Source: Candidatus Altimarinota bacterium (GTDB lineage Bacteria; Patescibacteriota; Gracilibacteria; UBA4473). Taken from it: a stretch of 64,000 nucleotides of DNA. Location of the stretch: contig OZ246423.1 of assembly GCA_965231215.1 (NCBI GenBank), forward strand, positions 256,001 through 320,000, written 5' to 3'. The notes under the pieces are model-generated. The model did not search any database, was not told where the DNA came from, and saw only the letters and a program-made list of their open reading frames with translations. How positions within the stretch are numbered: position 1 is the stretch's first letter; each line of letters starts with the position of its first letter. Positions 14,941 through 60,935 of the stretch are shown here, in pieces. The translations under genes were made by a program, and so were the position numbers.

Positions 14941-14944
14941 TTTT

Positions 14945-14973: not shown

Positions 14974-15196
14974 CAAGTAACTCGGAAGGTATGAGAACCC
15001 GTATCTGAAAGAGGGGTTCGATACACAGTCACGCTAAAAACTTTTCAAAAGCTTGAGTAATCCCTGTCTCTCCGCCAGAAAAACAGACCATAAGGCATTA
15101 AATTAATCTCGGCATACAGAAGATTGATCCCTCTCTTTTAGAGGTAAATTGAGTCAGTAACCCAATACTTATCTACCTAAACTTTAAAAAGAAAAA

Positions 15197-16030
15197 CTAT
15201 TTAATAGTTTGCCCTGGCAAAATAAGATCAAGAACTCCGTGCCCCATCCATTTTTTAATAAATTTGGCTACTTTTCCATCTAGGTTTGGCGTGTACCTTC
15301 TTTTAGGCGCACTACTTCGAGCTGCATGCAGCACCGCCTTGGCTATCGTGTCTGGGGATGCCCCGTTATCAACTCCTTTACTCCAGTGGGCCCGAAAATT
15401 TTTCATCTGCGTTTTATAAGGCGCGGCATTCGGATGTTTTTCACATTTATCAAGGTAGGGTAAACTGGCGTTATCAATATCCGTATCGATATACCCCGGC
15501 TCTATAAGCGATACCTTAATACCAAAGGCTTTCACCTCCATTCGAAGTGCATCTCCAAGCGCTTGTTGTGCATGTTTAGTGGCTGGGTACCAAGCCATAC
15601 CAGGCAACGAAACATGACCAGCACTTGAAGAACAGATAATAACTCGACCAAATTGTTGGGCTCTCATATGTGGTAAAACCGCAGTAAGCACCCTAGCATT
15701 CCCCAACACATTCACATCAAACTGGTAGCGCACATCTTCAATATCTTGCAGCTCTACTGGCCCCAAAAGACAAAATCCCGCATTGGCAAATAACGCATCA
15801 ATACGCCCTTCTTTTTCAATGATCGTATCCACCACTTTTTGCACGGCCTCATCATCGGTTACATCACAGTGCATAGCGATGGCTCCAAGAGCTTCTAAAT
15901 CTTTCATTAGTTCGACACGACGAGCCACACCATAGACTTTAAATCCATTTTCCTGCAGCATTTTTGCCGAAGCGTGTCCGATTCCAGTTGAAGCACCAGT
16001 AACCAGTGCAATTTTTTGAGAATTTTTCAT
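15197..16030 (-). CDS. Short-chain dehydrogenase/reductase
   Basis: VTGASTGIG, ANAG, YPATK (YxxxK). Confidence 0.92.
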   Translation of the reverse strand: MKNSQKIALVTGASTGIGHASAKMLQENGFKVYGVARRVELMKDLEALGAIAMHCDVTDDEAVQKVVDTIIEKEGRIDALFANAGFCLLGPVELQDIEDVRYQFDVNVLGNARVLTAVLPHMRAQQFGRVIICSSSAGHVSLPGMAWYPATKHAQQALGDALRMEVKAFGIKVSLIEPGYIDTDIDNASLPYLDKCEKHPNAAPYKTQMKNFRAHWSKGVDNGASPDTIAKAVLHAARSSAPKRRYTPNLDGKVAKFIKKWMGHGVLDLILPGQTIK

Positions 16031-16041
16031 GAAATTTTAAA

Positions 16042-16055
16042 TGAGTACTTACTCA
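16042..16055. promoter_or_regulatory. Candidate TetR-type operator
   Basis: tgagt-actt-actca palindrome; 13/14 identical to 51991-52004 upstream of the hydrolase-tetR pair. Confidence 0.5.
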
Positions 16056-16396
16056 CTTTGTAAATTATAACTTGGAAGTCAAATTAATTTTTTAACGCGC
16101 TAATGAACTCTCAATTCATTTAAAGCTCTAAAGTTTTTTCCAAATTTTTGATTTTTTAGAAATGGTTCTGAGTGAGCATTAACCCGTGTTTTTAGAAAAA
16201 TATTTTTTCATTGAAAATTTTTTTTGTCAATTAATTTTTTAGTTTTTAGTTTTTTACTTAAAGGATATCTTCACTTTTTTTTATCGTCTTTTTTTGAGCA
16301 CAAAAATAGTTCTTAATCTTGACTTAATATTCACATAGTAGAACTTTAGATAATTTTATGTTCCAATAAACAGGTACAAAAATGTGATTTTTTAAA

Positions 16397-22300: not shown

Positions 22301-24544
22301 ACAACTGGAGTGAGTCCTATAACCTCAGATTTAAGTGAGCCTACTCCACCAGTAGTATATCCCATCACTACGACGACCAACCCTATTAAAGGAACCAGTG
22401 AACCAGGTTCTGTTATTAATGTATCACCATTGACCTGTGATAATGCTCCTATAGTGACTGATACTTCAGGAAATTGGAGTTGTGATGTGACTTCATCTCT
22501 ACCAATCGCCGCGTTAACAACCATAGATGTGACCGCCACTGATTCAGCCGGGAATGTCAGTGATCCAACAATGACCACCGTAGTTGACCCCACTACAACG
22601 ACCGTACCACCAACCGTCGAGCCTACTGATGGAGATCCTGTAACCGGTACCGGAGAACCGGGGGCCCTGATTACCGTTAAAGACAACTTGGGAAATATTC
22701 TCTGTCAAACATCCGTTTTCCCAAACGGCACTTTCATCTGTAGTCCGGTCAGTCCGGCTCCAAGTCCTGGAGATACCCTTGAGGTGACTCAAAATATAGC
22801 TCCGAACGGCGAATCAGCGCCAACAGAATTGATGGTTATCGATCCAACAGCGGTTGTGTTACCGCCTACCGTCAGTCCAACCGACGGAGATGTAATAACC
22901 GGAACGGCAGAGCCAAATGCTACGGTGCGGATTATTAATCCAACTTCGGGACTAACGTTGTGTACGGCTACGGCGGATGGATCCGGGAACTTTAGCTGTG
23001 ATCTGAGCCCAGACCTTACTGATGGACAAACCGTCAACGTCACCGCCACCGTAGATGGAACCTCTTCATTGCCAACTACTATTACGGTTGATAGTAGTGA
23101 TTCTGATGGAGACGGAATAGATAATACTGATGAGATAGGGGCCATTAATGGCGGAGATGGAAATGGTGATGGGATGCCTGATGATGAACAAACCTCAGTC
23201 ACCTCTGTCATGAACCCCGTTACTAGCCAACCAGTCACTATGTCAGTCACGGGCGGAAACTGTCGTGTGATTGATGGTTATGATGTCGAGTTTGAAAGCG
23301 CTCAAACTACTCAAGATAGCGCCTTTGATTACCCGATCGGGCTGTTTGATTTTGAGCTTTATTGTACTAGCGTCGGGCAGAGCACAGACGTAACGTTCTA
23401 TCTAGATAAAGAGTACGATACCACGGGATGGGTCTGGAGAAAGATCAATCGGAGCGCGGGAGTTTATAGCACTTTTAATGAAACAGTTACCTATGGAACC
23501 GCCACTATAGGCACTGATACGGTGACAACCGTAAATATTGTAGTAGCGGACAATAATAGCGATGATGAAGATGCTACAGCTAATGCTCGTATTCTTGATC
23601 CCTCTGGACCGGCTTTGCCAGCACCTACTAGTTCCGGCTCCGGTGGTGGCGGAGGCAGTGCTCCGATTCGTCATATAATTACTATGTGTAGCTATGACAC
23701 AGGGAAGTGTGAAAATATTTTCCCTACGGGAAATGATGAAACTTATAAAACGTACCGAAAATGTTACCAGTCTGGGGTTAAGTCTGGGATAGAATGTGCT
23801 ACCGAATGGGCATTGGCCAAAAACTACGTAGCAGTAGAAGATTTTGCACCAGCCACCGATCAATCACAATCTAACGCTGAAGAGAGTTCCGCTTTGGTTC
23901 CAGAAGAAACGAAAACCGTCATTAGTGATGATAATCTTTGTGAAACCGTCATCTACCGACGTTATCCAGGCCGAAGGGGTGTTGGGGTCTCTGCTAATAT
24001 ATTTGGGGATACCCTTGAGACCCATTTAGCTTACCCTTACCTGGTAGACCTAAATGAACAAAACATTGTAAATGGTGACGCAAAAACCGGTAATGCTCGG
24101 TTGGATAATGAAATTAGTCGGGCGGAAGTGATGAAAATCATGACTATAGCTCGTCAAGATTCAATGAAGCAGGGAGAATGTGCTGAGTTAACCAGGTTCC
24201 CAGATGTTAATACAGGAGCTTGGTATCACCACTTTGTCCAAAACATGGAACAGCAAGATATAGTGCATGGGTATGGTGATGGCCTCTACCGACCTGGTAA
24301 AAACATTATTAAAGCCGAGATCTATAAAATTCTAGCCCTCTCCTTTGGCTACATTACCTATGATGAAGCAAATCAAATAGCGGTTGAACGTGGCGTTGAA
24401 TGGTATGTCCCTTATATTGAGGCTTTAGGAAAAAATATTGCTGTACCAAACGCCATAGCTGAGGCTGAACCGGATAAAGTGATGACTAGAGGTGAAGCCT
24501 TTACCCTGCTCTCATTAGTACTCAAAAACATTGACGGTCTCTAG
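16397..24544 (+). CDS. Giant surface protein/adhesin (2715 aa): signal peptide, LamG-like, cadherin-like, Ig-like repeats, Ca-binding DxDxD motifs, SLH-like domains
   Basis: ALA|AP signal; LWLKAN...WQDQS; NAAPTDI..FDYE cadherin-like; DxAGN Ig-like repeats; DSDGDGIDN; C-terminal ISRAEVMKI, FPDV..AWY, GYGDGLYRPG, MTRGEA. Confidence 0.85.
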   Translation: MNQKFPHRLLVSLCVVSFVFFNNASLALAAPGGVQTDLGLWLKANAGVFSDAGTTAATDGAEIQEWQDQSSAGIDATEATNSNQRPTFQSDAANLVNFNPSVLFDGSNDRFLLDSNSIALGNTSYSFRAVSTVGTNSNGNAILGSAGTGTRKSTLLELNAGSPPQVFSFWQATNLSADATNVDNDDIVIVGDNYDNTVGRTVFSNGLQIGSNANTSHSATDGLIKVGEFSTTGSTADRFTGRMMEVIAYSNTKSSTELNRIDAYLALKYGITLDQAVATAYLASDGSTKMWDETVNATYNNDIFGIGRDDGSNLDQRVSKSLNDDAILTVALDNDFTSANNDASRTTAFGSDLSFLMFANNNGAATFAVAGTNQVLDRVWQVQEEGTVGSVQLQFDMDDADFDIATLDRYELLVDTDNDADFSDETPVSMTNTTGSLWSTSFDFTDGQLFTVALGNAAPTDIALDGGNSDTIIENTVANTDIGTLTTTDSDVADTHTYSLACSVAGADDSHFAIVGDKLQNTTVFDYETPVDANTDNSYEVCVRVTDSGVGNATYDEILTVVVQDIVDETPPVISETTPVDTPTNDSTPSYTFTTDEAGTITYGGSCSSATTAAVVGPNTVDFNTLAEGPYTDCTITVTDAASNVSNQITVSSFTIDTTAPTTTPPSPGVTTPSSGPVNATVTIPAGSCGADYANGTALWNTNPAGQINPHPTTVSLDASGDYPQTVLDTSGSSGSFDLTLTCTDQAGNPGPTLDPAVGSFTADHVAPVIAIDSPLMGDDIFNASEAGTVTISGSTDAEDGQTVAVSVGTVSGNTTASSGTWSLVLDLSGEANGSLAITADVSDIAGNAATQATASITKDAAAPTTTPPTPGVTTPAVGPVGPTVTIPAGSCGADYANGTALWNTNPAGQINPHPTTVSLDASGDYPQTVLDTSGSSGSFDLTLTCTDQAGNPGPTLDPAVGSFTADHVAPVIAIDSPLMGDDIFNASEAGTVTISGSTDAEDGQTVAVSVGTVSGNTTASSGTWSLVLDLSGEANGSLAITADVSDIAGNAATQATASITKDAAAPTTTPPTPGVTTPAVGPVGPTVTIPAGSCGADYANGTALWNTNPAGQINPHPTTVSLDASGDYPQTVLDTSGSSGSFDLTLTCTDQAGNPGPTLDPAVGSFTADHVAPVIAIDSPLMGDDIFNASEAGTVTISGSTDAEDGQTVAVSVGTVSGNTTASSGTWSLILDLSGEANGSLAITADVSDIAGNAATQATASITKDAAAPTTTPPTPGVTTPAVGPVGPTVTIPAGSCGADYANGTALWNTNPAGQINPHPTTVSLDASGDYPQTVLDTSGSSGSFDLTLTCTDQAGNPGPTLDPAVGSFTADHVAPVIAIDSPLMGDDIFNASEAGTVTISGSTDAEDGQTVAVSVGTVSGNTTASSGTWSLVLDLSGEANGSLAITADVSDIAGNAATQATASITKDAAAPTTTPPTPGVTTPAVGPVGPTVTIPAGSCGADYANGTALWNTNPAGQINPHPTTVSLDASGDYPQTVLDTSGSSGSFDLTLTCTDQAGNPGPTLDPAVGSFTADHVAPVIAIDSPLMGDDIFNASEAGTVTISGSTDAEDGQTVAVSVGTVSGNTTASSGTWSLVLDLSGEANGSLAITADVSDIAGNAATQATASITKDAAAPTTTPPTPGVTTPAVGPVGPTVTIPAGSCGADYANGTALWNTNPAGQINPHPTTVSLDASGDYPQTVLDTSGSSGSFDLTLTCTDQAGNPGPTLDPAVGSFTADHVAPVIAIDSPLMGDDIFNASEAGTVTISGSTDAEDGQTVAVSVGTVSGNTTASSGTWSLVLDLSGEANGSLAITADVSDIAGNAATQATASITKDAVAPTTTPLPTTPTATGVVTSPTAIAGSCGLEAANGTVSFTTTPTGGLNPDPQVLTLDGNGDYSGTLSWDAGSDGNSYSLDVTCIDAAGNIGPTTGVSPITSDLSEPTPPVVYPITTTTNPIKGTSEPGSVINVSPLTCDNAPIVTDTSGNWSCDVTSSLPIAALTTIDVTATDSAGNVSDPTMTTVVDPTTTTVPPTVEPTDGDPVTGTGEPGALITVKDNLGNILCQTSVFPNGTFICSPVSPAPSPGDTLEVTQNIAPNGESAPTELMVIDPTAVVLPPTVSPTDGDVITGTAEPNATVRIINPTSGLTLCTATADGSGNFSCDLSPDLTDGQTVNVTATVDGTSSLPTTITVDSSDSDGDGIDNTDEIGAINGGDGNGDGMPDDEQTSVTSVMNPVTSQPVTMSVTGGNCRVIDGYDVEFESAQTTQDSAFDYPIGLFDFELYCTSVGQSTDVTFYLDKEYDTTGWVWRKINRSAGVYSTFNETVTYGTATIGTDTVTTVNIVVADNNSDDEDATANARILDPSGPALPAPTSSGSGGGGGSAPIRHIITMCSYDTGKCENIFPTGNDETYKTYRKCYQSGVKSGIECATEWALAKNYVAVEDFAPATDQSQSNAEESSALVPEETKTVISDDNLCETVIYRRYPGRRGVGVSANIFGDTLETHLAYPYLVDLNEQNIVNGDAKTGNARLDNEISRAEVMKIMTIARQDSMKQGECAELTRFPDVNTGAWYHHFVQNMEQQDIVHGYGDGLYRPGKNIIKAEIYKILALSFGYITYDEANQIAVERGVEWYVPYIEALGKNIAVPNAIAEAEPDKVMTRGEAFTLLSLVLKNIDGL
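18443..22025 (+). repeat. Intragenic tandem array of about 5.9 near-identical 609-bp (203-aa) units
   Basis: Units start at 18443, 19052, 19661, 20270, 20879 and 21488; only a few SNPs seen. Confidence 0.97.
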
Positions 24545-49730: not shown

Positions 49731-49785
49731 TCCCTCTGAGTTGGAATTGGCTAAGATTGCGCCGTATCACAGCTTTTTAGAAAAA

Positions 49786-50337
49786 CTAGGCCTGTTTTAA
49801 AACTTTATAATGATTCTGCACAAATCCACAGTTAAGTTTTTTTGAGTCTAATAATTCTAAATCAATATCTTCATTGATTTCACCAAACAGACGTTTCCCG
49901 TCTCCGAGCAATAGGGGAATAATAGTTAGAGTTATTTCTTCCACTAATCCGGCCCTTAGAAAAGACTGCACCACCAAACCACCATCAACATAAACCCGCT
50001 TTAAACCCTTAGCAAAAAGCTCTTCCATAAGTACGTTGGGTTCAGCAGAGGTTACCTGAACAGTGGAACGCAAATTTTCTGGTATATCATCGTTTGTCAT
50101 AGAGTGGCTCATTACCATGACCGGTTTTTTATAAGGCCACGCTTCAAAGCCTAAAACTTTTTTAAATGTACCGCTCCCCATAATCATTACCTCTATTTTT
50201 TCTACAAAACCATCATACCCTTGATCTTCTCCTTTGGTATCATACTTCATCAACCAGCTAAGATCATTGTCTTTCCTGGCCACAAAACCATCCAGGCTCA
50301 TAGCCATAAATACATATCCTTTTGCTCTGTCTTTCAT
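49786..50337 (-). CDS. Dihydrofolate reductase-family (RibD C-terminal-like) protein
   Basis: AMSLDGFVA, IMGSGTF, VYVDGG, LLLGDGKRLF; ATG at 50337. Confidence 0.88.
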   Translation of the reverse strand: MKDRAKGYVFMAMSLDGFVARKDNDLSWLMKYDTKGEDQGYDGFVEKIEVMIMGSGTFKKVLGFEAWPYKKPVMVMSHSMTNDDIPENLRSTVQVTSAEPNVLMEELFAKGLKRVYVDGGLVVQSFLRAGLVEEITLTIIPLLLGDGKRLFGEINEDIDLELLDSKKLNCGFVQNHYKVLKQA

Positions 50338-50366
50338 AGACTTATTGTACAGAACAAAAGTGAGGC

Positions 50367-50453
50367 GTCTACCTACCCACATCAAAAAAGCCAAGCTAGA
50401 ACTAGCTTTTAATCGTTTCTGCGATCAACTGACTGTACTAGACCCTACTTCAC
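50367..50453 (+). repeat. Cassette-boundary element copy A (left arm plus degenerate core)
   Basis: tctacctacccac..aaaaaagccaa.ctaga..tagcttt..ctgcgatcaactgactgtactagaccctacttcac; homologous to 57053-57149. Confidence 0.75.
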
Positions 50454-50998
50454 TGACCAAGCGCTTCCCAAATGACTTCTAAATCAGAACGCTTAACTTG
50501 TTTTTGCTTTTGTTCATGTAGGTTTCGAATAAAAGCACTTAAAATGCCCCACCAAATATCCATAAGTAGTTGTGTATCCAAAGACTTCAAAGCCCCTTCT
50601 TTCTGCCACGCTTTAATAAGCTCAACTGACTGTGCCGCCTCTTTTTTATAGAGTTTTCGCGCCTGAGCAGAAATTACCGGCCCTTTTTCTAACATCTGAA
50701 AAAACTGAAACTCTTCAAAATGTTTCAAATAATAACCAACCATAAACTCTGAAGATTTAAACACTACCGTTTTAGCTGGCTCAGAGTAGTCGAGGTTTTC
50801 ATGCATGGACGCGAAGGCTTGCTTCTTTTTTTCAAGATAAATAGTGTCAATCAATTCTTGTTTGGTTTTAAAATGCACAAACAGACTTCCAGAAGCTATT
50901 CCCACTTCTTTACAGATTTGGCTCGTGGAGGTTTTATGGATACCTTGAGCAACAAAGAGTTTTAAAGCCGCTTGGATTATTTTATCACGGGTTTTCAT
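50450..50998 (-). CDS. TetR/AcrR-family regulator
   Basis: IIQAALKLFVAQG, ICKEVGIASGSLFVHFKTKQEL. Confidence 0.92.
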   Translation of the reverse strand: MKTRDKIIQAALKLFVAQGIHKTSTSQICKEVGIASGSLFVHFKTKQELIDTIYLEKKKQAFASMHENLDYSEPAKTVVFKSSEFMVGYYLKHFEEFQFFQMLEKGPVISAQARKLYKKEAAQSVELIKAWQKEGALKSLDTQLLMDIWWGILSAFIRNLHEQKQKQVKRSDLEVIWEALGQ

Positions 50999-51972
50999 GG
51001 AGTTTTAGCACTTAAACTATTTTTGGATAAAAATTGACTCGCTCGCTCCACGATGTCATCAACAAACTCAGGCTTATAGTACAAATCAAAGTGCGTTGCA
51101 TTTTTGCAAATTAGCAGGTCTTTTTTGTCTGCTGGGATAGCGTCGTAAAACTCTTGAATCTTTTCCGTCGAATATCCCCCATCGGCATAGGCCATAAAAA
51201 AGGGTTTGTTTTTGTATTTTTTGATAAAATTAAAGGGATTGTACTTCCCAGTCATGATGTTACTGGCCCGATAAAAATTACCTTTATTTTTCCAACTGGG
51301 GCTCGCTCCGGGTTTATCACCGTAACCGTAGTACTGAGGCATATCAGCTTGCGTTGGCGTCGCCGGGATGTAAGTCATCCATTTTTTAAGCGGTACAATA
51401 GGAATATAAAAATAAATACCAAACTTGTGAAATAGGTTTATAAATGGATTAGAAATTCCCATCATAATCTGAGTTAAGAGTTTGCCACCAAAGGCTTTAG
51501 GATAATCAATGTGTGAGGTTAGGTATGGACTAATAGCCAGAACCGCTTTAACTTTCTCATTATCTGAACCTGCCGCCATGGCATGACCGGCTCCCATACA
51601 GATACCCGCACTGATGATTTTATCCGCATCAACCTCTGACAACGATGCTAGATACGCAAAAGCGTTTTTATTATCGGAAATAATAGAAAAAGGATCTTCC
51701 ATTTGCGGCACGCCTTCACTCCCACCAAACCCCTTTACATCAAAAGCGAGAGCCATATAGCCTTGTTCTGAAAATTTTTCGGCATAGAGTCCAGCCGTTT
51801 GCTCTTTCACGCCTGAGGCGGGGCGAGTCACCACTATCGCCGCTCGTTTTTCTCCCTTTTTATAATCCTTAGGGATAAATAGGTGTCCTTCTAGTTGGCA
51901 GCCGTCGCTGTCAAAGTAGATCGTATTTTTACCTGGTTTTAGTTTTTTGTTCATGATGTTTTTATGTGCCAT
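50995..51972 (-). CDS. Alpha/beta hydrolase (YcjY-like)
   Basis: GVKEQTAGLYA, GGSEG, GICMG nucleophile elbow, THFDLY. Confidence 0.88.
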   Translation of the reverse strand: MAHKNIMNKKLKPGKNTIYFDSDGCQLEGHLFIPKDYKKGEKRAAIVVTRPASGVKEQTAGLYAEKFSEQGYMALAFDVKGFGGSEGVPQMEDPFSIISDNKNAFAYLASLSEVDADKIISAGICMGAGHAMAAGSDNEKVKAVLAISPYLTSHIDYPKAFGGKLLTQIMMGISNPFINLFHKFGIYFYIPIVPLKKWMTYIPATPTQADMPQYYGYGDKPGASPSWKNKGNFYRASNIMTGKYNPFNFIKKYKNKPFFMAYADGGYSTEKIQEFYDAIPADKKDLLICKNATHFDLYYKPEFVDDIVERASQFLSKNSLSAKTP

Positions 51973-51990
51973 GATTTAAATTTCAAAAAG

Positions 51991-52004
51991 TGAGTACTCA
52001 CTCA
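51991..52004. promoter_or_regulatory. Candidate TetR operator
   Basis: tgagt-actc-actca upstream of the hydrolase-tetR operon. Confidence 0.6.
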
Positions 52005-52057
52005 TTATTTATTAAAAACAAATATAAATCAAGGAAATTCATAAAAAGAGTTTTGCC

Positions 52058-52117
52058 TCCACCCACCTCCCTTATTCCAAAAGGGTTAATCAAAGACTAG
52101 CTTTCAAGCGTGGGGGG
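52058..52117 (+). repeat. Element copy B, left part
   Basis: 60 bp identical to 60725-60784. Confidence 0.92.
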
Positions 52118-52123
52118 GAGAGA

Positions 52124-52906
52124 TTACTTTATGTTCGGGGAGATCAATTCAGGCTGAAAGTGATCGACATACAAAGCGTGTCCTTCATAAAAGAATCGGA
52201 GAACCTGATCGAGCCGAGCCCTCAAATGACGGGATAATTTTTCACACTCCCTCAAAAATTCATCGGTTTCATAACGCATTCGAGTTCTAGTACTTGCACC
52301 ATTCACACTCGATATATCCATCCATCCTGTTTGATGATAAAGACTTAGATTGGTAACGGCTCCACTTGGTTCTAAAACTCTCATAACAAGACGTTTTTGT
52401 CGGTGATGTAGTTCTTGGTCATCAAGGCTTGGGAGTTCAGTAAGAGCTTCTGATAAGTCATAGGGGTAAGTATGAATTTCTTTATACCCACCTTCAGGAG
52501 TCAAACCTAAGAGCGTAACCTCAAAAGAAGTTACTCCTGTTGGTTTTAGCAGAATTTTACTTGATTGCTCATCCTGAAAAGGATGGGCGGGTACACTAAC
52601 ACTTTCTCGCTTTTCTAGAGCTTTATCAATGTTGATTGGCTCTATGTGCATTAAAAACGGATCAATGTAAAAATTATTTTTTCTGTCTGAACAAACAATA
52701 GCATAGTGCAATATCCCCCCCTCTGTTACCGACCTCAAAAATTTTACCTTATAGCCTTCCGTTTTTAAAAGTTCTGATAACTGTTTACACTGTTGAACAC
52801 AGTTACCACCAAAATTTTCAGGGTAGATCATTCCCGAATTTACAAGAATTTTCCCAAAAGAATTATAGGGAGTAGTTTCTACAATTTGACTCAAGGCTTC
52901 TTTCAT
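52124..52906 (-). CDS. Hypothetical protein with a possible Cys-His-Asp (N-acetyltransferase/transglutaminase-like) triad
   Basis: FGGNCVQQC...ILHYAIV...FYIDP order and spacing resemble NAT GGxC / H / D. Confidence 0.55.
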   Translation of the reverse strand: MKEALSQIVETTPYNSFGKILVNSGMIYPENFGGNCVQQCKQLSELLKTEGYKVKFLRSVTEGGILHYAIVCSDRKNNFYIDPFLMHIEPINIDKALEKRESVSVPAHPFQDEQSSKILLKPTGVTSFEVTLLGLTPEGGYKEIHTYPYDLSEALTELPSLDDQELHHRQKRLVMRVLEPSGAVTNLSLYHQTGWMDISSVNGASTRTRMRYETDEFLRECEKLSRHLRARLDQVLRFFYEGHALYVDHFQPELISPNIK

Positions 52907-52956
52907 TTTTTAATGCATATTAGAAATGTAAATAAAAATAGTCAAGGGTTTTCACT

Positions 52957-53085
52957 CTCATTTCCTCATATCGAACCCTGGGCTTGGGTTCAAAGCCCAA
53001 CTCCAAAATATATTTTAAAAAACAGACTCAAGGTCTGTGTTTTTAAATATGGCTGGCTTGTGTGGATGAAGTTAGGAAGATTATT
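52957..53085 (+). repeat. Element copy B, right part including core
   Basis: About 100 bp with ~3 mismatches to 60836-60935; contains hairpin aaacagac..gtctgtgttt and core tggctggcttgtgtggatgaagttaggaagattatt. Confidence 0.92.
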
Positions 53086-53113
53086 TTAGAGTCCAAACAA
53101 CATCTATTATTTC

Positions 53114-56100
53114 TTAGGAGCTTGAAATTACAGTAAAAGGAATTTGATATGTCTCTTGCAAATAAGACTCAGTTACTCCTAGCAATGACAAACAAGTATT
53201 TCCAATATTAGCTTTAGATATACCTGGTTGCACCACATAGATGTACATTTCAACATCTAGGTAATCTTCAGACTGTCTTTGCAATATTTGAGCAAGGTCA
53301 GTATCGCCAACTTCAAAGCCATTAACTCCAGTTGTCTCAGACCTGCGAATCATATGGTGGAAAATTTTTGGAACATTTGTTCTCCACTGAATACTTTTTT
53401 GGGCTTGCCCACAAACATTATAAAGATCGCCAACTCTATCTCCGGGAGAATCTCCAGATGAGAATTTGCAGTGGTAAAATTCAATCCGTAGCACATTATC
53501 GTCTTTTTTAATTGCTATGATATCCGCCATTTCTCCGGCTCTATCATCATCAAATATGATGTCATAGCTTTCTGACTTTAATTTCTCAATAACCTTAAAT
53601 TGAATAGATGTGGGATCTTTCTCATTTCCTTGAGATTCTTTTCTAATATTTACGCCAGTCCAATCCCAAGCAGATATTTTTTCTTGATTGTAAAGAGTGA
53701 CGTCTGCTCTTGGTTTAGCTAAAATACTTCCCTCCAACAATGATCCATCAGAAAATCTTATAACTGGTGGATTGTCATGAAAATAATCAACTAAATTTTG
53801 GCCTTGTGAATTAAAGAATATCTTTAAGGGTGGGCTACTTTCTTCTGTAAAACTTACAGTACTCATGTCTCCTTCTGGCGAAAGTTGTAAGGACATCGAA
53901 TAGGTAGACTCAAAATCTGTAGTAAAAACTTTGAACTTTATTGCTTCTGAACTTTTAGAACTTATTTCAATTCCCACTTCATCAATTGGTATTTTAGAAG
54001 TTCCGTGCTGAATCCATATTGCAGTTTGAGTGTCAGTATAAATGGATTCGTCCCATTCGATCGTTACCGGCTCACTTTCCGGAATAGACAATGCAGTTTC
54101 CGTAATTAGTGAGTTTTTTAGGAAATCATAAGCTTCTATACTTTCATCCAACAACTTTGCCCCTAAATGCTCACACCAAAGCTTAAAGTCTCTAATATTT
54201 GTCACTTGTCTTGACCAAATCCTGCCTTTATAAGAACAGCCTAAACTAGTTTTCTCGCCTGCCTCAAAGCCTAACCCGAATAAATTAGATTTTATCTTTG
54301 TACTAGTTTGGGGATCGCTAAGCCCCTTTTCAACATCAACCCCTGAGTACATTGTATATCGGATTGCTTTACCCCAATTAGATCTCAGGCCGATGTTTTT
54401 AAATATGATTCTTTTCAAATCGTGAAAAGCTCTAAAAATAGTTTCTCCTTCAACTATATGAGCTTCACCCGAAGAAAGTGCCTTAGCTACATTTTCATGG
54501 AGGCTGCCGTTGTTTGAGCTATTTATAAATAATAGATTTTTTTCTCTATCCCAATAAATCAAATATAAGTCCCACTCTAAATTTCTTATGTGTTTAAAGA
54601 ATCCCCATTCCACATATTTTTTGCTACCTTCAACTACAACTAATACATTCTCTCTTTCACTATGAGTGTATTTAATAATTTTCTTTTCTGAGGTTTTACC
54701 AAATATCTCAATAACTGCATCTTCATTAGACAGGTCAACATCACCACTGATTTTAAACACAACTGTACTCATTTTTGGCCTAATGTTTTGAAGGCCAATA
54801 GATTCATTTTCTGTATCGAAGCTTTGAATAAAATCATTTAATGAAATCTGTCGTTCAATTTCATTTTCACTCCAAACTTGGAGTATAAGATTCCAATCTG
54901 GGTTAGCAGAATATAGCTCTCTCAAAATCTTACTCGAATTAGGACTTGTTATATCAGCTATTACTTGTGCTTCTCCTAAATTTAAATCATGAGAATAACG
55001 AGTAAAACGACCAACAAACTGCAATGTAATCGGCAGACTTTTATGAATATCATGTATTGCAGCGATTTTAAGCTCAGGTAGATCAAAGCCCTCACCAAGC
55101 ATGTCTACACAGACTACAATTTTTGACTGATGCGACTTTAGCTGCTCAAATGCATAATTTTTTTCAGCTGGAGACAACTCGGAATGAATAATTACAGGAT
55201 TCAAATCCGAAGCTAGGTCTTGATATATTCGAAATACATCTCTTGAGCGAGGGATTGTTTTTGTACGTACCATCATTAAATGATCTAGATTCCTCTCATC
55301 TAAATCTCTTCTGAGAATCTCAGTAGATTTCTCTGCAATTGCTCTATCTACCTTGCTTTCGTCCCACTCTCGGATTCCGGTGAAATTTATCTTCTTAAAG
55401 TACTCATCTTCAAAAGCATCTTTTAATTTATAATTAAATATTGTTCTGCCATCAACATGCTCACCATCATTGCGGAATGGTGTTGCAGTAAATTGCATCA
55501 CAGGCTTATGTCTTTTGACGAAACCTTTTTTAATTTTATCCCAAGTTTTAGCCGTAACATGATGTGCTTCATCCACGAATAAATGTGTAAAGACGGTAGA
55601 TAGATGTTCAAGAATAGCCTCATCGCACCGACCTAAACTGCTTGGGGTTGCTATTACTATGTTTGAGTGTGAAACAATTTCGTTTATTTCAGAGAGCGAC
55701 TTAGGTATGTGTTCAATGACTCCAACTGAAGGTAGCATCGTTTGTTCATTAAAACCTTCTAGTCTGGATATAAATCCCAAGGATTTAAACTTCCGAAAAG
55801 TTTGTTCTCTAAGGGGAACTGAAGGAACAAGGATCAAAACTTTTTTACATTGATTCAGGAGTATTGATCCAATCATAGTCTCTGTTTTTCCTGTTCCAGT
55901 CGGCATGATTATATTTACAACTTCGGTAGAGCAGGTTAAGTACCCTAATATTGAGAACATTGCACCTCTTTGAGGACGCCTGAGTACTTTGTCATTTTCA
56001 TTTACCTTTTCACGAAATGGGTCAAAACAGTTTTTCCAACTAGAAATTATCTGCTCGAGGGGTGCTTCGGGGTTATCAAATAAGCCATCATAAATAGCAT

Positions 56101-56170
56101 TGCACTCAACTTTTCCAAGCTGAACTTTTTTACTTATTCCACTGAACCCCATGCTCGATTGATCGCTCAT
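53114..56170 (-). CDS. SF2 DEAH helicase fused to a C-terminal putative PD-(D/E)xK-like nuclease; candidate defence protein
   Basis: MPTGTGKT, DEAH, TAT, GEGFD, QFVGR; C-terminal DDRAGEMADII...EFYHCK. Confidence 0.8.
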   Translation of the reverse strand: MSDQSSMGFSGISKKVQLGKVECNAIYDGLFDNPEAPLEQIISSWKNCFDPFREKVNENDKVLRRPQRGAMFSILGYLTCSTEVVNIIMPTGTGKTETMIGSILLNQCKKVLILVPSVPLREQTFRKFKSLGFISRLEGFNEQTMLPSVGVIEHIPKSLSEINEIVSHSNIVIATPSSLGRCDEAILEHLSTVFTHLFVDEAHHVTAKTWDKIKKGFVKRHKPVMQFTATPFRNDGEHVDGRTIFNYKLKDAFEDEYFKKINFTGIREWDESKVDRAIAEKSTEILRRDLDERNLDHLMMVRTKTIPRSRDVFRIYQDLASDLNPVIIHSELSPAEKNYAFEQLKSHQSKIVVCVDMLGEGFDLPELKIAAIHDIHKSLPITLQFVGRFTRYSHDLNLGEAQVIADITSPNSSKILRELYSANPDWNLILQVWSENEIERQISLNDFIQSFDTENESIGLQNIRPKMSTVVFKISGDVDLSNEDAVIEIFGKTSEKKIIKYTHSERENVLVVVEGSKKYVEWGFFKHIRNLEWDLYLIYWDREKNLLFINSSNNGSLHENVAKALSSGEAHIVEGETIFRAFHDLKRIIFKNIGLRSNWGKAIRYTMYSGVDVEKGLSDPQTSTKIKSNLFGLGFEAGEKTSLGCSYKGRIWSRQVTNIRDFKLWCEHLGAKLLDESIEAYDFLKNSLITETALSIPESEPVTIEWDESIYTDTQTAIWIQHGTSKIPIDEVGIEISSKSSEAIKFKVFTTDFESTYSMSLQLSPEGDMSTVSFTEESSPPLKIFFNSQGQNLVDYFHDNPPVIRFSDGSLLEGSILAKPRADVTLYNQEKISAWDWTGVNIRKESQGNEKDPTSIQFKVIEKLKSESYDIIFDDDRAGEMADIIAIKKDDNVLRIEFYHCKFSSGDSPGDRVGDLYNVCGQAQKSIQWRTNVPKIFHHMIRRSETTGVNGFEVGDTDLAQILQRQSEDYLDVEMYIYVVQPGISKANIGNTCLSLLGVTESYLQETYQIPFTVISSS

Positions 56171-56176
56171 TTTCTT

Positions 56177-56404
56177 CTACAGAGTAGGCAACCATATTAA
56201 CCCTTGACCCTCTTTTCTCAAAATTGGTTTATCACATATCTTAAACATTTCTTCATCGTGGTCAGAATCACCAATCGCCCAACTCTCATGTTGAGGGTAA
56301 TTCGTTAGTAAATCAGTTACAATGGCTCTTTTCCCTTTCGTTGGACATATGTCTCCAGAAACAGAAATATCTGCCGTCAGGGTATTGGAGCAGAACTTGT
56401 TTCT
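56177..56404 (-). pseudogene. 3' fragment of a HAD-family hydrolase, cut at repeat core C
   Basis: Hand-translated ...DICPTKGKRAIV...WAIGDSDHDEEMFKICDKPI...*; has the HAD Lys and GDSxxD motifs but no start and no motif I. Confidence 0.7.
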
Positions 56405-56441
56405 ATGGCTGGGAACGATTGACTGTATTAGAACTTACTTC
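56405..56441 (+). repeat. Element copy C (core only)
   Basis: tggctgggaacgattgactgtattagaacttacttc, near-identical to the core of copy D. Confidence 0.85.
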
Positions 56442-56473
56442 GTAAAAAATGATTTTGATGATACCATCCAAAG

Positions 56474-57046
56474 GTGAAAACAAACAAAGTGACTACCAAA
56501 TATTTTACTAACAGAGATGAATGGAGGGCCTGGCTTCAGGTCAATTTTGAAACCCAAGACGAAATTTGGCTTGAATACCCTCTAAAAAAAACCGGCAAAG
56601 CCAGAATCCTGTATAATGACGCTGTGGAAGAAGCCCTCTGTTTTGGTTGGATAGATAGCACAGTAAAGTCGTTGAATACTAACACTACTATTCAGCGTTT
56701 CTGTAAGAGGCGGAAAAACACTTCGTTTTCTCAACCAAATAAAGAGCGGCTAAAATTACTTTATATAATGAAGCTAATCCATCCATCTTTGATTCAAAAT
56801 ATTAAAGAAGTAATTTCAGAAAAATTTGTTTTTCCTGAAGATATTTTAGAAAAGCTAAAACTAGAAAAAATGGTGTGGGATAATTATCAATCTTTTTCAG
56901 AGCCCTATAAACGGATTAGGATCGCTTATATAAACGATGCAAGGAACAGACCGGAAGAATTTGAGAAGCGTTTAGCCAATTTTGCAAGCAAGACCAAACA
57001 CAATAAACTAATAAAAGGCTTTGGTGGGATCGATAAATACTATTAG
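56474..57046 (+). CDS. YdeI/OmpD-associated family protein
   Basis: F...EWRAWL, YNDAVEEALCFGWIDS, S..NKER, AYINDAR...KRL. Confidence 0.88.
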   Translation: MKTNKVTTKYFTNRDEWRAWLQVNFETQDEIWLEYPLKKTGKARILYNDAVEEALCFGWIDSTVKSLNTNTTIQRFCKRRKNTSFSQPNKERLKLLYIMKLIHPSLIQNIKEVISEKFVFPEDILEKLKLEKMVWDNYQSFSEPYKRIRIAYINDARNRPEEFEKRLANFASKTKHNKLIKGFGGIDKYY

Positions 57047-57052
57047 TTAAAA

Positions 57053-57149
57053 GGTTCTACGTCTACCCACTATTAAAACAAAAAAGCCAATCCTAGATTA
57101 GCTTTCAAGGGTGGCTGCGAACGATTGACCGTATTAGAACCTATTTCAC
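57053..57149 (+). repeat. Element copy D (left arm plus core)
   Basis: gtctacccac..aaaaaagccaatcctagattagctttcaagggtggctgcgaacgattgaccgtattagaacctatttc. Confidence 0.85.
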
Positions 57150-57225
57150 AAAAATAGACTAAACAAAGTTTTTGTGTTGAAAAATATTTACTGATTACTA
57201 TTTTGTTTCAGAATAATATTTTTTC

Positions 57226-60200
57226 ATGCCAGCTAATTCAGTAGATAACTTTCGGCCTTTATTTGATGATTTGGATGTAATGTCACTGTCTTCAGCTGAT
57301 TTAGGTGAAGAGGCGTTACAAAGCAGAGTAAGGAAGCTAATCGAATCTGGCCATTTACCACAGCCAGAAAATACTACTCCTTGGGAAGAGTTGTTAGTTA
57401 CTAATCGACTACCAAACCTAGAGGAGAATGAGAAAGCAGCTTTGGTAGATTTAATACTTGATGGTGGTGAAATTAATCGTAATTCTGTTCAAGGGGTTCT
57501 GAGCAACTGGCCAATTGTTCAACTTGAAGCTTTAAGTTTAATTCTCAATAAAGAAAGAGTATTAGCAGATGTTGAATTTGACGCTTTACTACCTGAATTT
57601 CCTTTCCCGATATTGCGGGGAAACCTTTTTGGTCGTTATATTTCTAAAAAAGCACCAGATATAACGAGAGCTACTGCTTCTTTAAAAGCTGCCATTCCTT
57701 TTTTCATAGCCGTTAGGCAGATTCTAGATGTCTTACAAGATGACCGTAATAACTGTATTATCTTAGATTTAGACAAAGACCGCAGTGCTAGTGGGTCTCA
57801 AGGAGTTGAAAAGGCGGCGATTGGAGAAGCTCTAAAAGGGCTTGAAGACATAATTATGAGCCATGCTAGATCTTTTAATAGAAGTGAAAAATTATCTAGC
57901 ACAGAAAGCCAAAGAATGGTTGAATTGGTAATGAAAGCTATTGAGAATAGCCATGATCTTAGTGCAAGTAGTACGAAGGGTATCAGAACCGTGATGTTAC
58001 CACTTTATAAAGAAACTCGAGCTTTCTTTGATTTTCGAAAATTTGCCACAGAAGCAGCATTACAATCTTCCGAACTAGCGCGTGTGAAACATCTATTTGG
58101 GTTAGATGAAGAACTAGAAGTTGATAAAGACTTAGAAACTGTAGAGCCAAAGAAAAAGAAGAAGAAAAAAAAGAAAAAGAAGAAGAGTCCGACTAAAATG
58201 AAATTAAGAGAGATCTTAGATTTCTTTGATGCTGATGACTTAGAACGTTTTAAAGCTGAAATTGCAGAAGCAAAACAAGATAACCAAAGGGTTTTAATTT
58301 TAGACGATCGAATTGATCCAAGACTTAGAGATTCAAAAGCTTCAACTATCTATCCACTAATCGAGGGCGTTTACAGATCTGGTGATGTTTCAGAAGAGGG
58401 ATTGCCAGCAGCTTCTGATGTTGCCTTTCTTACTAAACCAAGGACTGGTTACTACGATATTGCCGTTGAAGGTATGGAAGGAGCGACTTTTGAGCATAGA
58501 TTTAATGAATTTACACTTACTGATGCCGACACGCCTGACGTGTTAGATGACATCTTTGCTACTCTCGAACCAGACAAGCCAGTTGAAGCTTTACAATTTG
58601 CGGATGATCTTGTTCAGGAATTAGGAGTTGATGGAGCTAGTGTTGATTGGCAAGTAATTAGAAGAGCTGAAACACGCTACGGATCAGCCAGTAAGTTAAA
58701 CATTTTAAGGTATGTATTAGAGAGTGTTAAGAGTCTAAGCGAAGTTGACTTACGTTATGTTTTTTCTGTGCTATTAAGCCATGGAGTTTATGAAGTGCCA
58801 GAAGATTTAATTACTACTATGGTCAAGCGCTTTGGTGTCCCCGTCAGGCTTTGGGAGCAATACCACGCGTTTACAAAAAACTACCAACCACAAACTTTTG
58901 GAGAGAGTCCTGATACTTTTGTGCAATTAACGACCCTCAACGCTTACGCTAAATGCCGGCTTGACGCAGAAGGCGTACCAGCTGAAACTGATCAATTAAT
59001 TAAGCATCTTCATGATGGTAGAGTAGTTGTTTTGACTGATGATACTCGGTTTTCTGGTCAAGCTAATGCTGACTTAGAAGGTGTAGGTGAAAGTTCTGAA
59101 GAAAACGGTCAACCAACTATTCGCCCGAGTAGTAGAGTGCTTTACTCACTCATTGAAAGAACGGTGCAGGGTGAAGTCCCAGAAGATATGAAAGGTGCTT
59201 CTGTTGTTTCTATTGCCCCTAATGCCGTTTATATTTGGGGAGAGCGTTACACTTGGCCTAAAGATTTTAGTAAAGTCCGTGCCGAGCTAGCCAAACTAGT
59301 TATGCACAACCCTAATACCGTTGTTATTTTAGAGCCTGGAAACATTGATAGACCAGAGCAATTCAGAGAAGTGATTGATATTATTGGTGAATATGGATTA
59401 CGGCTTGTCATTAGAACCAACCAGTCTGTTTCGGATTTTCCGCAAGTTAATGTTGTACCCATCTTAGATGAAGAAATTGTTGACCGCCTTTACTACAGTC
59501 CAACGCTTCAACAAAAACTCGAACTGAGTGAACCGGTTGATAAAAGAGTTTTGAAGTACTTAAGCGAAGTCATTTCTCGGCGCTCCCCAGACCAAGATCC
59601 TTTAGTTTTAGCTTTGAATATACTAGATATTGCAGCAGCAAATATTAAAGCCGTTGGAGGTGACACCATTAGTCTTGGTGATATAACATTAGCAGCACCT
59701 TGGGCATTGGGAACCCCTGATCCATCAGCGTTGGAGCGTGGTAAAGAAAGAATCTTAAGAGCTGGAGAGAACATTAAAGGCCATCTTTCTGGTCAAGATA
59801 AAGCCATTGATATGGTAGCCGAATTAATGGTGGCTAAACTACAAGGGACAATGGATGACACTAAGCCTTGTGCCATTGTAATGCCCGGGCCCTCTGGAGT
59901 AGGTAAAACCGAGACTAGCTGCAGACTTGCTAGGGCTGCCGGGTTTAAATTTATCCCCCTTAACGGAAATATGTTCTCTGAGCCGAGTGCAGTACGTGAA
60001 CTATTTAAATCTGATGGGGTGTTTGCTAAAACTATTGCTGCAAATAAGAACGGTATTTATTTCTATTTAGATGAAATTGATAAAGCTGATATTTCACTCT
60101 TTCAAGCTATCCTACAGCTTGCAGATAGTGGTGCTTTTTACACAAGTGATGGTAAGGTAATTTATAATCCATCAGTAATTTTAGCACTCCCTACGAATGC

Positions 60201-60714
60201 TGCCGCAGACAAAGTATGGAAAGGAGCTGCCGATGAAGACATTAGAAACGCGCTAGACGAGAGTATGGTTCATAGAAATGGGAATAAAATTATTGGGGCG
60301 AGTAACCGTTTTTATGTTGTTCCGTTTACTGGTGTTGATAAACAATCATTTGAGCAAGCTATTGAAAAAGCCCTAATGGATACTAGTAACTATCCTGGCT
60401 TAAGAATGGCTGGTATTGATGTCACGGAAGTCACTCCGGCGGCTGTCGAATTGGTTTACAATTTCTGTGAAGAATCATGTCTTCGAGGCGGAACGAATCA
60501 AGGTGTAGGGTTTATTCCCCAGAGTCAGCAAAAAGCTAATTCCGAAACAGCAGAATATGAAAATTTACGACGCATTGGCTACGCTATACAAGCTTTAGCC
60601 AAAGACTCTTTTTCTAAAACTGTTAACGAAAAAGGCGGTTTAAAGTCAGTATTAAAAGGACGAAAAATGAAGTTATGTGCACAAGATGAGAAATTAGTCC
60701 TAATTGATATTTAA
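57226..60714 (+). CDS. Large protein with a C-terminal ClpA/B-like AAA+ domain and a 12-Lys tract
   Basis: GQDKAI, GPSGVGKTE, YLDEIDKA, LQLADSG match Clp NBD2; the preceding region looks like a degenerate NBD1; N-terminus not recognised. Confidence 0.75.
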   Translation: MPANSVDNFRPLFDDLDVMSLSSADLGEEALQSRVRKLIESGHLPQPENTTPWEELLVTNRLPNLEENEKAALVDLILDGGEINRNSVQGVLSNWPIVQLEALSLILNKERVLADVEFDALLPEFPFPILRGNLFGRYISKKAPDITRATASLKAAIPFFIAVRQILDVLQDDRNNCIILDLDKDRSASGSQGVEKAAIGEALKGLEDIIMSHARSFNRSEKLSSTESQRMVELVMKAIENSHDLSASSTKGIRTVMLPLYKETRAFFDFRKFATEAALQSSELARVKHLFGLDEELEVDKDLETVEPKKKKKKKKKKKKSPTKMKLREILDFFDADDLERFKAEIAEAKQDNQRVLILDDRIDPRLRDSKASTIYPLIEGVYRSGDVSEEGLPAASDVAFLTKPRTGYYDIAVEGMEGATFEHRFNEFTLTDADTPDVLDDIFATLEPDKPVEALQFADDLVQELGVDGASVDWQVIRRAETRYGSASKLNILRYVLESVKSLSEVDLRYVFSVLLSHGVYEVPEDLITTMVKRFGVPVRLWEQYHAFTKNYQPQTFGESPDTFVQLTTLNAYAKCRLDAEGVPAETDQLIKHLHDGRVVVLTDDTRFSGQANADLEGVGESSEENGQPTIRPSSRVLYSLIERTVQGEVPEDMKGASVVSIAPNAVYIWGERYTWPKDFSKVRAELAKLVMHNPNTVVILEPGNIDRPEQFREVIDIIGEYGLRLVIRTNQSVSDFPQVNVVPILDEEIVDRLYYSPTLQQKLELSEPVDKRVLKYLSEVISRRSPDQDPLVLALNILDIAAANIKAVGGDTISLGDITLAAPWALGTPDPSALERGKERILRAGENIKGHLSGQDKAIDMVAELMVAKLQGTMDDTKPCAIVMPGPSGVGKTETSCRLARAAGFKFIPLNGNMFSEPSAVRELFKSDGVFAKTIAANKNGIYFYLDEIDKADISLFQAILQLADSGAFYTSDGKVIYNPSVILALPTNAAADKVWKGAADEDIRNALDESMVHRNGNKIIGASNRFYVVPFTGVDKQSFEQAIEKALMDTSNYPGLRMAGIDVTEVTPAAVELVYNFCEESCLRGGTNQGVGFIPQSQQKANSETAEYENLRRIGYAIQALAKDSFSKTVNEKGGLKSVLKGRKMKLCAQDEKLVLIDI

Positions 60715-60724
60715 AAGTTCTGAG

Positions 60725-60935
60725 TCCACCCACCTCCCTTATTCCAAAAGGGTTAATCAAAGACTAGCTTTCAAGCGTGGGGGGATTACTCGCTTCGCTC
60801 ATGACTTCGTATCGAACCCCGCCCTTCGGGCTTACGGGTTCGAAGCCCAACTCCAAAATATATTTAAAAAAACAGACCCAAGGTCTGTGTTTTTAAATAT
60901 GGCTGGCTTGTGTGGATGAAGTTAGGAAGATTATT
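60725..60935 (+). repeat. Element copy E: intact ~210-bp element (left arm, tRNA T-arm-like hairpins, terminator-like hairpin, core)
   Basis: Contains both halves of copy B contiguously; tcgaaccc...gggttcga inverted repeat. Confidence 0.92.

Follow-up and report, generated by a model that had tools for sequence, protein, structure and literature searches.

What are the repeats that separate a run of unrelated genes in a 1.33-Mb bacterial genome, and how did the genes come to lie between them? The question is posed by a 64,000-nucleotide stretch of DNA from a Candidatus Altimarinota bacterium (contig OZ246423.1, positions 256,001 to 320,000), which we call the window. Between 50.3 and 60.9 kb of the window, repeats in a single orientation alternate with cargo genes. 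A sequence-only reading of this region had proposed an integron-like gene-capture hotspot built around one 36-bp core. We found that the repeats originate from a tRNA-Gln gene, that they are confined to one array, and that the accessory cargo between them varies. The window probably holds the distal portion of an array of genomic islands with its anchor at the tRNA-Gln(TTG) 3' end, in which the repeats would be attachment (att)-type scars. Coordinates below are window positions unless marked as genome positions. Comparisons were made within a family set of 43 genomes from 25 genera, including the genome under study; its named relatives are labelled Patescibacteria.

Repeats derived from the 3' end of tRNA-Gln

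A repeat search of the 50.3-60.9 kb interval confirmed the five sites of the sequence-only reading, all of them on the + strand. The claim that they share a single core did not hold. The 36-mers of copies B (53050) and E (60900) are identical (36/36), those of C and D match at 32 of 36 positions, and A matches C or D at 27 of 36. Between B/E and A/C/D only 11-16 of 36 bases match, which is the chance level: 28,621 positions in the genome match the C core at 16 or more of 36 bases, and 4 positions do so at 24 or more (both strands, whole genome). We take the fourth of these to be a copy outside the window, at genome position 324654. There are thus two 36-mer families rather than one core in five copies, and they have little in common beyond an initial TGGCTG. 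Longer matches follow the same division. B and E share a 100-nt pair (52986-53085 and 60836-60935, 97% identity) and a 72-nt arm pair, termed B1/E1 (52046-52117 and 60713-60784, 94% identity). A 43-nt family occupies 50416, 56406 and 57112 with 65-100% identity, and A and D share a 71-nt pair (50383 and 57079, 75% identity).

The arm that had been described in front of four copies is real, but it directly precedes the core in A and D only. The arm of B lies ~930 nt ahead of the 53050 core and that of E 116 nt ahead of the 60900 core, and in both cases the sequence that comes next is a different homologue of the A/C/D core. Copy C has no arm. We searched the whole genome with a hidden Markov model (HMM) of arm plus core and recovered seven copies, all on the + strand in one co-oriented array of ~19 kb, and none elsewhere. 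They are Z, A, B1, C and D at the positions in Table 1, E at 60709-60822, and a copy with a degenerate tail, F, beyond the window at genome positions 324654-324694. Copy Z is a weak sixth copy in the window that the sequence-only reading had overlooked. That reading had named cores scattered away from gene boundaries as a finding that would speak against it; the copies occur only in this array, at cargo boundaries.

The source of the repeats is a tRNA gene. The genome contains a single tRNA-Gln(TTG) gene, at genome positions 349805-349879 on the - strand, 29.8 kb past the end of the window. Every repeat copy is located past its 3' end and has the same orientation as the gene. The gene ends in ...CCACCCCAGCCA, and its reverse complement opens with TGGCTGG, the same seven bases with which the B, C and E cores begin. 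ARAGORN called no tRNA at the window repeats. The hairpins ahead of the B and E cores are terminator-like on both strands. In other genera the same hairpin stands directly 3' of complete tRNA-Gln genes (loci L021 and L030) and 3' of tRNA-Gln tail fragments (L022, L023/L034, L024, L028 and L029), whereas the tRNA-Gln gene of the genome under study has no hairpin of this type. Because the hairpin is a tRNA-Gln terminator elsewhere, we read the 3' parts of B and E (B2 and E2) as the native 3' flank of a tRNA-Gln gene plus its last 7 nt, detached from the gene. B2 and E2 also have in common the 29 nt that follow TGGCTGG.

A second tRNA revealed how the longer repeats are organized. A BLAST search of the genome with copy E (60713-60935) found 74 nt beside tRNA-Arg(tcg) at 82% identity (E 4.4e-14), and the start of this stretch is the final 19 nt of tRNA-Arg in reverse complement. 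We call the arrangement a tRNA-trailing element (TTE). Read in the orientation of the tRNA, which is the - strand of the window, it runs from a complete tRNA through a terminator, a hairpin with GGTTCGA at the end of its 3' strand and an insert X to a copy of the last 18-19 nt of the same tRNA. We aligned copies A, B1, C, D, E1 and Z, two copies from the sister-species genome G016 and the tRNA-Arg TTE with MAFFT. The arms fell into register, and the A/C/D core faced the tail, X and GGTTCGA of E and of the tRNA-Arg TTE. In A, C and D the tRNA-Gln tail has a 4-nt deletion, X is shrunk to 7-8 nt, and the half-site reads TTAGAAC. Another family genome, G014, carries an arm 86% identical to that of D, followed by a 19-nt tRNA-Gln tail (two differing positions, as read), a long X, the hairpin, the terminator and a second tail copy, and so has two TTEs in tandem. 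From these comparisons, all copies in the array trace back to the reverse complement of the tRNA-Gln 3' end with its terminator and TTE, decayed to differing degrees, and are neither integron sites nor a protein motif.

The protein motif had been proposed because the cores read as a W-L-x3-D-x2-R peptide, which suggested a site overlapping the 3' end of a recombinase gene. We rejected this coding reading. The pattern [WF]L...D..R has 37 six-frame matches in the genome, none of which closes a frame of at least 100 aa, and the six array copies of the pattern have 1-35 open codons ahead of them. The W-L arises because TGG CTG is the reverse complement of the ...CAGCCA end of tRNA-Gln. The suggested link to C-termini of serine recombinases of the candidate phyla radiation (CPR) was not supported, but it is borne out in one respect: large serine recombinase genes of 510-630 aa abut tRNA genes in the family, as described below. 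A match of the repeats to insertion sequence ends, repetitive extragenic palindromes or attC had also been named as evidence against the sequence-only reading, and this came about in spirit, with partial-tRNA att scars as the matching class.

The tRNA-trailing element across tRNA genes and genomes

TTEs are not restricted to tRNA-Gln. The same layout stands behind tRNA-Arg, Ser-gga, Ser-tga, Trp and Ala in the genome under study; the tRNA-Gln TTE carries an extra downstream arm with a second terminator-like hairpin. Insert X starts with TAC, contains GTCACG and ends with GAGT. Its length runs from 24 nt in copy E to ~100 nt, and the X of copy B holds a whole 260-aa open reading frame (ORF). 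The junction motif GGTTCGATACGAGG, with one mismatch allowed, occurs in 27 of the 43 family genomes and in 18 of the 25 genera, with 63 matches against 6 for the reversed control. In a sample of 401 genomes across the phylum, genomes outside the family had only single one-mismatch matches, and the control matched in a comparable, approximate number of genomes (the tally includes the unpublished genome G195, on which no claim rests).

We read 30 of the family loci individually. Seventeen have a tRNA on the same strand 24-139 nt upstream (Val, Gly x3, Leu x3, Gln x2, Ser, Trp x4, Lys, Ala and Tyr), and a tail copy follows X in 11 of these, perfect in 8. About six further loci are TTE-like with no tRNA called in the fetched stretch, and seven are chance matches in coding sequence. 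An exact 19-mer of X was present at 56 places in named genomes. Seven are in metagenome-assembled genomes labelled Patescibacteria, Peribacteria, Gracilibacteria or Altimarinota, and six of these lie 122-138 nt past a tRNA (Trp, Gly, Trp, His, Ala and Gln), with a perfect tail copy in five of the six. The remaining 49 places are in genomes of 54-74% G+C and are apparently unrelated. Across the family, TTEs stand behind at least 14 tRNA species.

Only the tail copy is specific to the tRNA. We considered a split duplication of the T-arm and rejected it: the 5' strand of the hairpin plus GGTTCGA matches its own tRNA at a mean of 10 of 17 positions against 9.1 of 17 for other tRNAs, and the own tRNA is strictly the best match in 5 of 22 cases. 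The tRNA-specific part reduces to the 18-19-nt tail copy. The start of the tail copy at T-loop position 58/59 had suggested tRNA-primed reverse transcription, which we set aside: apart from a DRT3 pair, which nothing links to TTEs, the genome has no reverse transcriptases (RTs). Two X patterns, exact or degenerate, gave no matches in viral contigs, where exact-match scans are weak tests, so there is no evidence for X as a phage attP. Separately, tRNA-Ala(ggc) (genome positions 483914-484222) is followed by a ~152-nt tandem unit of tail copy, terminator, hairpin and a different insert.

Insert X has a conserved fold. RNAalifold on 15 long-form copies predicted one long hairpin that starts inside GGTTCGA and in which 92.7% of alignment cells pair. 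Nine of its 20 pairs are changed on both sides, compared with 2.7 +/- 1.3 in shuffled alignments (0 of 500 reach nine) and 1-4 in slid controls, figures that overstate independence because the copies are related. One pair is G-U in 11 of the 15 copies, and on the tRNA-sense strand only. This pattern fits a model in which the tRNA-sense strand folds, either as RNA or as single-stranded DNA.

A fold of this kind raises the possibility that the TTE is a functional noncoding RNA, made with or after the tRNA and mimicking its 3' end, which would make it akin to the RtT repeats of E. coli tyrT, and that the array copies are duplicates or relics with no role in recombination. Such an RNA would suit the high sequence conservation of X, seen in different genera and behind at least 14 tRNA species, the covariation with its sense-strand G-U pairs, and the terminator-like hairpins that flank both sides. 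In Rfam, RtT (RF00391) gave a weak match to the tRNA-Arg TTE (17.7 bits against a gathering threshold of 45, E 4.9) and none in the window; no family reached threshold in the region, the whole window or the tRNA-Arg TTE locus. The window copies are truncated and decayed in tail and X alike, unlike an RNA under selection, and an RNA would leave unexplained why an exchanged block ends at TTE junctions. We regard this RNA reading as unlikely. The TTE appears to be previously undescribed: neither Rfam nor full-text literature searches, which covered one library and were not aimed directly at TTE features, turned up an account of it.

Block exchange with a sister species and candidate enzymes

The complete genome of the sister species G016 shows how cargo has moved. 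Window positions 49777-52052 correspond to G016 positions 1175799-1173524 with 99.25% identity over 2276 nt, a block of two cassettes. Neighboring genes of the two species have 62-83% protein identity, and one aligned flank is 74.5% identical in DNA. One end of the block lies 3 nt into X beside the tail copy (..GATTACT). The other, enclosed by copy Z, falls exactly at the GGTTCGA-type half-site, between GTA and TTAGAA; beyond it lies NrdG in the genome under study and an unrelated 339-aa ORF in G016. The block was thus recently exchanged, and it ends at TTE junctions. In G016 the tRNA-Gln gene is followed directly by a TTE and then by hydrolase, TetR, copy A', RibD_C and copy D', with three copies in all; D and its G016 counterpart are 83% identical. 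The extra units of the genome under study lie between the tRNA and the shared block, as predicted by insertion on the tRNA-proximal side.

The array has three features of a tRNA-anchored island array. An intact tRNA stands at one end, partial tRNA 3'-end direct repeats lie at the unit boundaries, and unit content differs between related genomes, as seen in G016, in a helicase gene found in 0 of 42 other family genomes and in the distant relatives of an ATPase gene. The idea of a gene-capture hotspot with repeats at cargo boundaries is supported by the confinement of the array, its accessory cargo and the 99.25% block that ends inside repeats.

A second locus allows a comparison with and without an island. 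In G016 the flank follows directly after tRNA-Ser(gga). In the genome under study, tRNA-Ser(gga) (9354-9443) is followed by a 5.5-kb island without an integrase, a 28-nt repeat of the tRNA end (~14913-14940), a 137-nt TTE (14941-15077) and then the same flank. The terminator and hairpin of this TTE equal those of the tRNA-Ser(tga) TTE, and its tail copy likewise belongs to Ser-tga, differing from Ser-gga at three positions. Tail, terminator and hairpin of one type indicate that the unit moved as a whole, with a crossover in the last 10 shared bases. Past this point, identity to G016 is 93% over 15059-22046 and 89% over 22328-24544, against ~74% for ordinary flank; the high-identity stretch (15059-24544) begins exactly at the TTE end and includes 609-bp tandem coding repeats at ~18.4-22 kb.

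We examined Logan contigs of three DNA runs (X1, X2 and X3), in which stretches without cover are uninformative; no RNA run containing the region was listed. No deletion joint was found at the repeats. Run X1 showed roughly doubled depth over 49777-52052. A circle was rejected as the cause, in favor of a co-resident G016-like organism: contigs with the G016 arrangement are present, and a joint from 57130 to 49777 (with CGTA between) and a loose end at 57079 match that arrangement. Both species were thus in the same sample. One contig of run X3 joins 60530-60724, the end of the ATPase gene, through the arm to 52058-52196 in the 260-aa ORF. This joint is expected if the 8.7-kb B-E segment forms a circle or is present in tandem, and it counts as no more than a hint. 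A 34-35-nt insertion (52050-52084) in the arms of B1 and E1 is absent from G016 and from one run X2 contig; it holds 9 nt identical to the sense tRNA-Gln tail.

We infer a direction of growth, circular intermediates and an enzyme for the tRNA-Gln array. Circular DNAs carrying a tail copy would integrate through site-specific recombination of the Campbell type, with the tRNA end or with a tail copy already in place as the target. Every such event would bring in cargo and a further repeat copy, and older cargo would be displaced away from the tRNA. The likeliest enzymes would be tRNA-adjacent large serine recombinases, encoded by the island or acting in trans.

The genome encodes two large serine recombinases. 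One lies in the 33-kb segment between copy E and tRNA-Gln. The frame of the other (genome positions 812233-813825) ends 3 nt from tRNA-Lys, at the start of a 9-kb island (812156-821500) that also encodes a tyrosine recombinase (818215-819204). The far end of this island, at ~821409, carries a TTE junction motif and hairpin, and the motif is preceded by ACCA and a terminator; a tRNA-Lys tail copy with up to 4 mismatches was not found after the motif. We retrieved family recombinase loci with the proximal-island recombinase as query. Among serine recombinases of 510-630 aa, a tRNA gene was present within the fetched flank in 10 of 11 family loci. At L119 and L121-L129, genes of this class lie within ~1 kb of a tRNA (Ala, Ser/Val, Arg, Asn, Trp, Ser, Gln, Asn, Gln and Ala).

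Several observations weigh against the island array as we describe it. The window cassettes contain no recombinase gene. The proximal-island recombinase belongs to a ~430-aa class for which 0 of 20 family loci, that of the genome under study included, have a tRNA within 1.5 kb; the contig of G017 stops short of any tRNA. B and E share a whole 223-nt TTE plus 29 nt, which is more than a simple att core, and homologous recombination or segmental duplication may have contributed to them. The 99% block ends at different positions in its two sites (X/tail and GGTTCGA/X), unlike integron cassettes. The Ser-tga-type tail argues for a crossover within the last 10 nt instead of the T-loop, so that any exact crossover point is tentative, and the 'empty' Ser(gga) site of G016 is explained equally well by deletion between repeats. 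Finally, the X3 joint crosses a 60-nt exact repeat at low depth and is possibly an assembly path; the contigs show neither a circle nor a deleted form.

The TTE might contribute more than a scar. We suggest, tentatively and as a minority possibility, that it could be a new recombination site: a folded hairpin module with an 18-19-base copy of its target tRNA, through which cassettes lacking an integrase would be inserted, stacked and swapped behind the tRNAs of these reduced-genome bacteria by recombinases acting in trans.

A different origin would make the repeats a small non-autonomous mobile element, either the TTE or X, that spreads alone and meets cargo boundaries incidentally. X lies between GGTTCGA and the tail copy without a target duplication, it is a conserved hairpin with compensatory changes, and it can contain a whole gene, as in copy B; the Ser-tga-type TTE behind tRNA-Ser(gga) indicates a unit able to move. 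A possible route would be a single-strand HUH/Y1 transposase that inserts behind a short target, for example TTCGA or CCA, and the genome does contain one RAYT-like Y1 (IS200-type) gene (genome positions 605284-605889). However, this gene is single and directly upstream of recF, with no TTE nearby. The Gln-type arm and core copies sit in one 19-kb array instead of being scattered, a 4-5-nt target rule does not explain an 18-19-nt match to the local tRNA, and the 99% block spans the interval between elements rather than one element. TnpB and IS110 guides were also rejected, as the genome has no TnpB gene (one sub-threshold zinc-ribbon match) and no IS110-type gene. We consider an independently spreading element doubtful.

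Mobile integrons consist of IntI, attI and attC, with unrelated genes between repeated, partly palindromic sites of variable centre, and they exchange blocks of cassettes. A true integron-like platform here, with a dedicated recombinase that captures promoterless cassettes through folded single-stranded sites, is very improbable: the co-oriented sites at cargo boundaries, their hairpins, partial palindromes and variable centre, and the block exchanged between species resemble an integron, but the sites are heterogeneous and built on tRNA tails, the array begins at a tRNA gene and not at attI/Pc, its genes run in both directions in units that may hold several genes with promoter- and terminator-like signals of their own, and no IntI-type recombinase is adjacent. 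The sequence-only reading had correctly noted that the window lacks an integrase; the two Phage_integrase genes of the genome, at 818 kb and 883 kb, are more than 500 kb from the array, and PF00589 matches only at genome positions 818248-818751 and 883210-883737.

Cargo of the array and its relation to known islands

Pfam agreed with the earlier cargo calls, returning RibD_C, TetR, dienelactone-hydrolase-like, ResIII/DEAD helicase, OmdA/YdeI and AAA ATPase matches (Table 1). The exception is the 260-aa ORF, which had been called N-acetyltransferase-like: it has no Pfam match, and a weak Atlas lead points to arylamine N-acetyltransferase. A promoter-like TTGACT-17-TAATAT site lies ahead of it, also within X, at 52945-52917. 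The RibD_C, TetR, hydrolase, 260-aa and helicase genes are on the - strand and the YdeI and AAA genes on the + strand. Long ORFs under translation table 11 indicate the standard genetic code. The helicase result (0 of 42) holds for the query used, and the relatives of the AAA gene, in three other genera, have only 24-28% identity. A run of 12 lysine codons lies within the AAA gene at 58141-58194, where run X1 contigs appear cut.

Table 1. Repeat copies and cargo genes of the tRNA-Gln array within the window
Feature	Position	Strand	Description
Copy Z	49734..49786	+	Weak copy with degenerate core at the distal array end; nhmmer E 1.6e-5
RibD_C (DHFR-like) gene	49786..50394	-	PF01872, E 1.9e-21; 99% identical in G016
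Copy A	50355..50458	+	Hairpin arm, reverse complement of degenerate tRNA-Gln tail, short insert, T-loop-like half-site; E 1.1e-20
TetR regulator and alpha/beta (dienelactone-type) hydrolase	50450..51972	-	Pfam; 99% identical in G016
Copy B1	52044..52135	+	Arm and reverse-complement tRNA tail, ending at the insert X junction (..GATTAC); 94% identical to E1
260-aa ORF	52124..52906	-	No Pfam match; inside insert X of copy B; weak N-acetyltransferase lead
Copy B2	52957..53085	+	TTE remainder: insert end, hairpin, tRNA-Gln terminator 53022-53038, TGGCTGG 53050-53056
1018-aa ResIII/DEAD helicase	53114..56170	-	Long C-terminal extension; strain-specific; Pfam; weak PADLOC PbeA / PDC-S71 matches
Copy C	56371..56448	+	Core alone; E 2.2e-11
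YdeI/OmdA-family gene	56474..57046	+	PF13376
Copy D	57046..57155	+	Arm, terminator-like hairpin 57082-57106 (- strand), core 57112-57141; E 5e-27
1162-aa protein with C-terminal AAA ATPase domain	57226..60714	+	Pfam; PADLOC DolB 1.5e-12
Copy E	60709..60935	+	Contiguous TTE: arm, tail fragment 60778-60787, 24-nt insert, hairpin, terminator 60872-60888, TGGCTGG 60900-60906; nhmmer E 3.1e-14

Read from tRNA-Gln downwards, the array comprises the 33-kb segment, E, the AAA gene, D, YdeI, C, the helicase, B, hydrolase plus TetR, A, RibD_C and Z; beyond Z lie the core-like genes NrdG and NrdD. The proximal 33-kb island starts at the right end of copy E, and its two junctions have only TGGCTGG in common. 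This segment contains two ORFs without assignment, the large serine recombinase, a terminase, two methylases, efflux genes, the DRT3 pair, a kinase-like gene, copy F, a Macro-domain gene and two large unassigned genes. About 6.8 kb around the recombinase recurs in another genus at ~79%. The DRT3 genes encode adjacent RTs (Drt3a, 1.4e-107; Drt3b, 1.2e-210) at genome positions 326962-330301 (L043:10962-14301), beyond the window. The tRNA-Gln island of this small genome with Patescibacteria-labelled relatives thus includes a DRT3 defence system.

We compared the array with described systems. RtT repeats behind E. coli tyrT are units that each contain the last ~19 nt of the tRNA. The TTEs resemble them as repeated units downstream of a tRNA that carry a copy of its tail; unlike RtT, the TTE has its own conserved hairpin X and stands behind many tRNAs, and its match to RF00391 is sub-threshold.

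Pipolins are tRNA-flanked. One report describes them as integrative elements that serve as reservoirs of defence genes (PMC11551731). In contrast to pipolins, the annotated parts of the array include no PolB hallmark, and the structure of the array differs.

The ssrA islands of Dehalococcoides reportedly use serine recombinases, have repeats of the ssrA 3' end and occur as tandem islands; we know of no trailing structured element in them. These ssrA-specific genomic islands are among the nearest described systems (PMC3146451). They target tmRNA, whereas the array here targets a tRNA.

The tycheposon islands of Prochlorococcus are tRNA-side islands formed by successive integrations at the same site, in which newcomers push older elements inward (bioRxiv 10.1101/2020.12.28.424599). 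They contain scattered partial tRNAs and degenerate remnants along with adaptive or defensive cargo, and their integrases are mostly tyrosine recombinases, with some large serine recombinases (same source). The tRNA-Gln array shares the stacking on one side of a tRNA, the partial-tRNA remnants and the accessory or defence cargo. Unlike tycheposons as described there, the window cassettes keep no integrase or replication module, and a conserved structured element of hairpin plus X surrounds the partial tRNA. The host also differs from Prochlorococcus, being of Patescibacteria type with a 1.3-Mb genome.

Arrays of islands beside tRNA genes are a known route of gene gain, and the hotspot described here is a further example rather than a new principle. 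It shows a 1.3-Mb genome stacking and exchanging accessory and defence genes, including DRT3, a helicase and an ATPase, with one block 99% identical in a co-occurring sister species. The part not accounted for by known systems is the TTE. The seams between cargo units are made of this conserved structured element, which is found behind at least 14 tRNA species, occurs in 27 of the 43 family genomes and matches no Rfam family. The TTE is a candidate attachment module, miniature mobile element or RNA. If it does prove to be a recombination site, it would be a tRNA-anchored functional analogue of the integron, in which the tail copy would act as a reiterated pseudo-attachment site.

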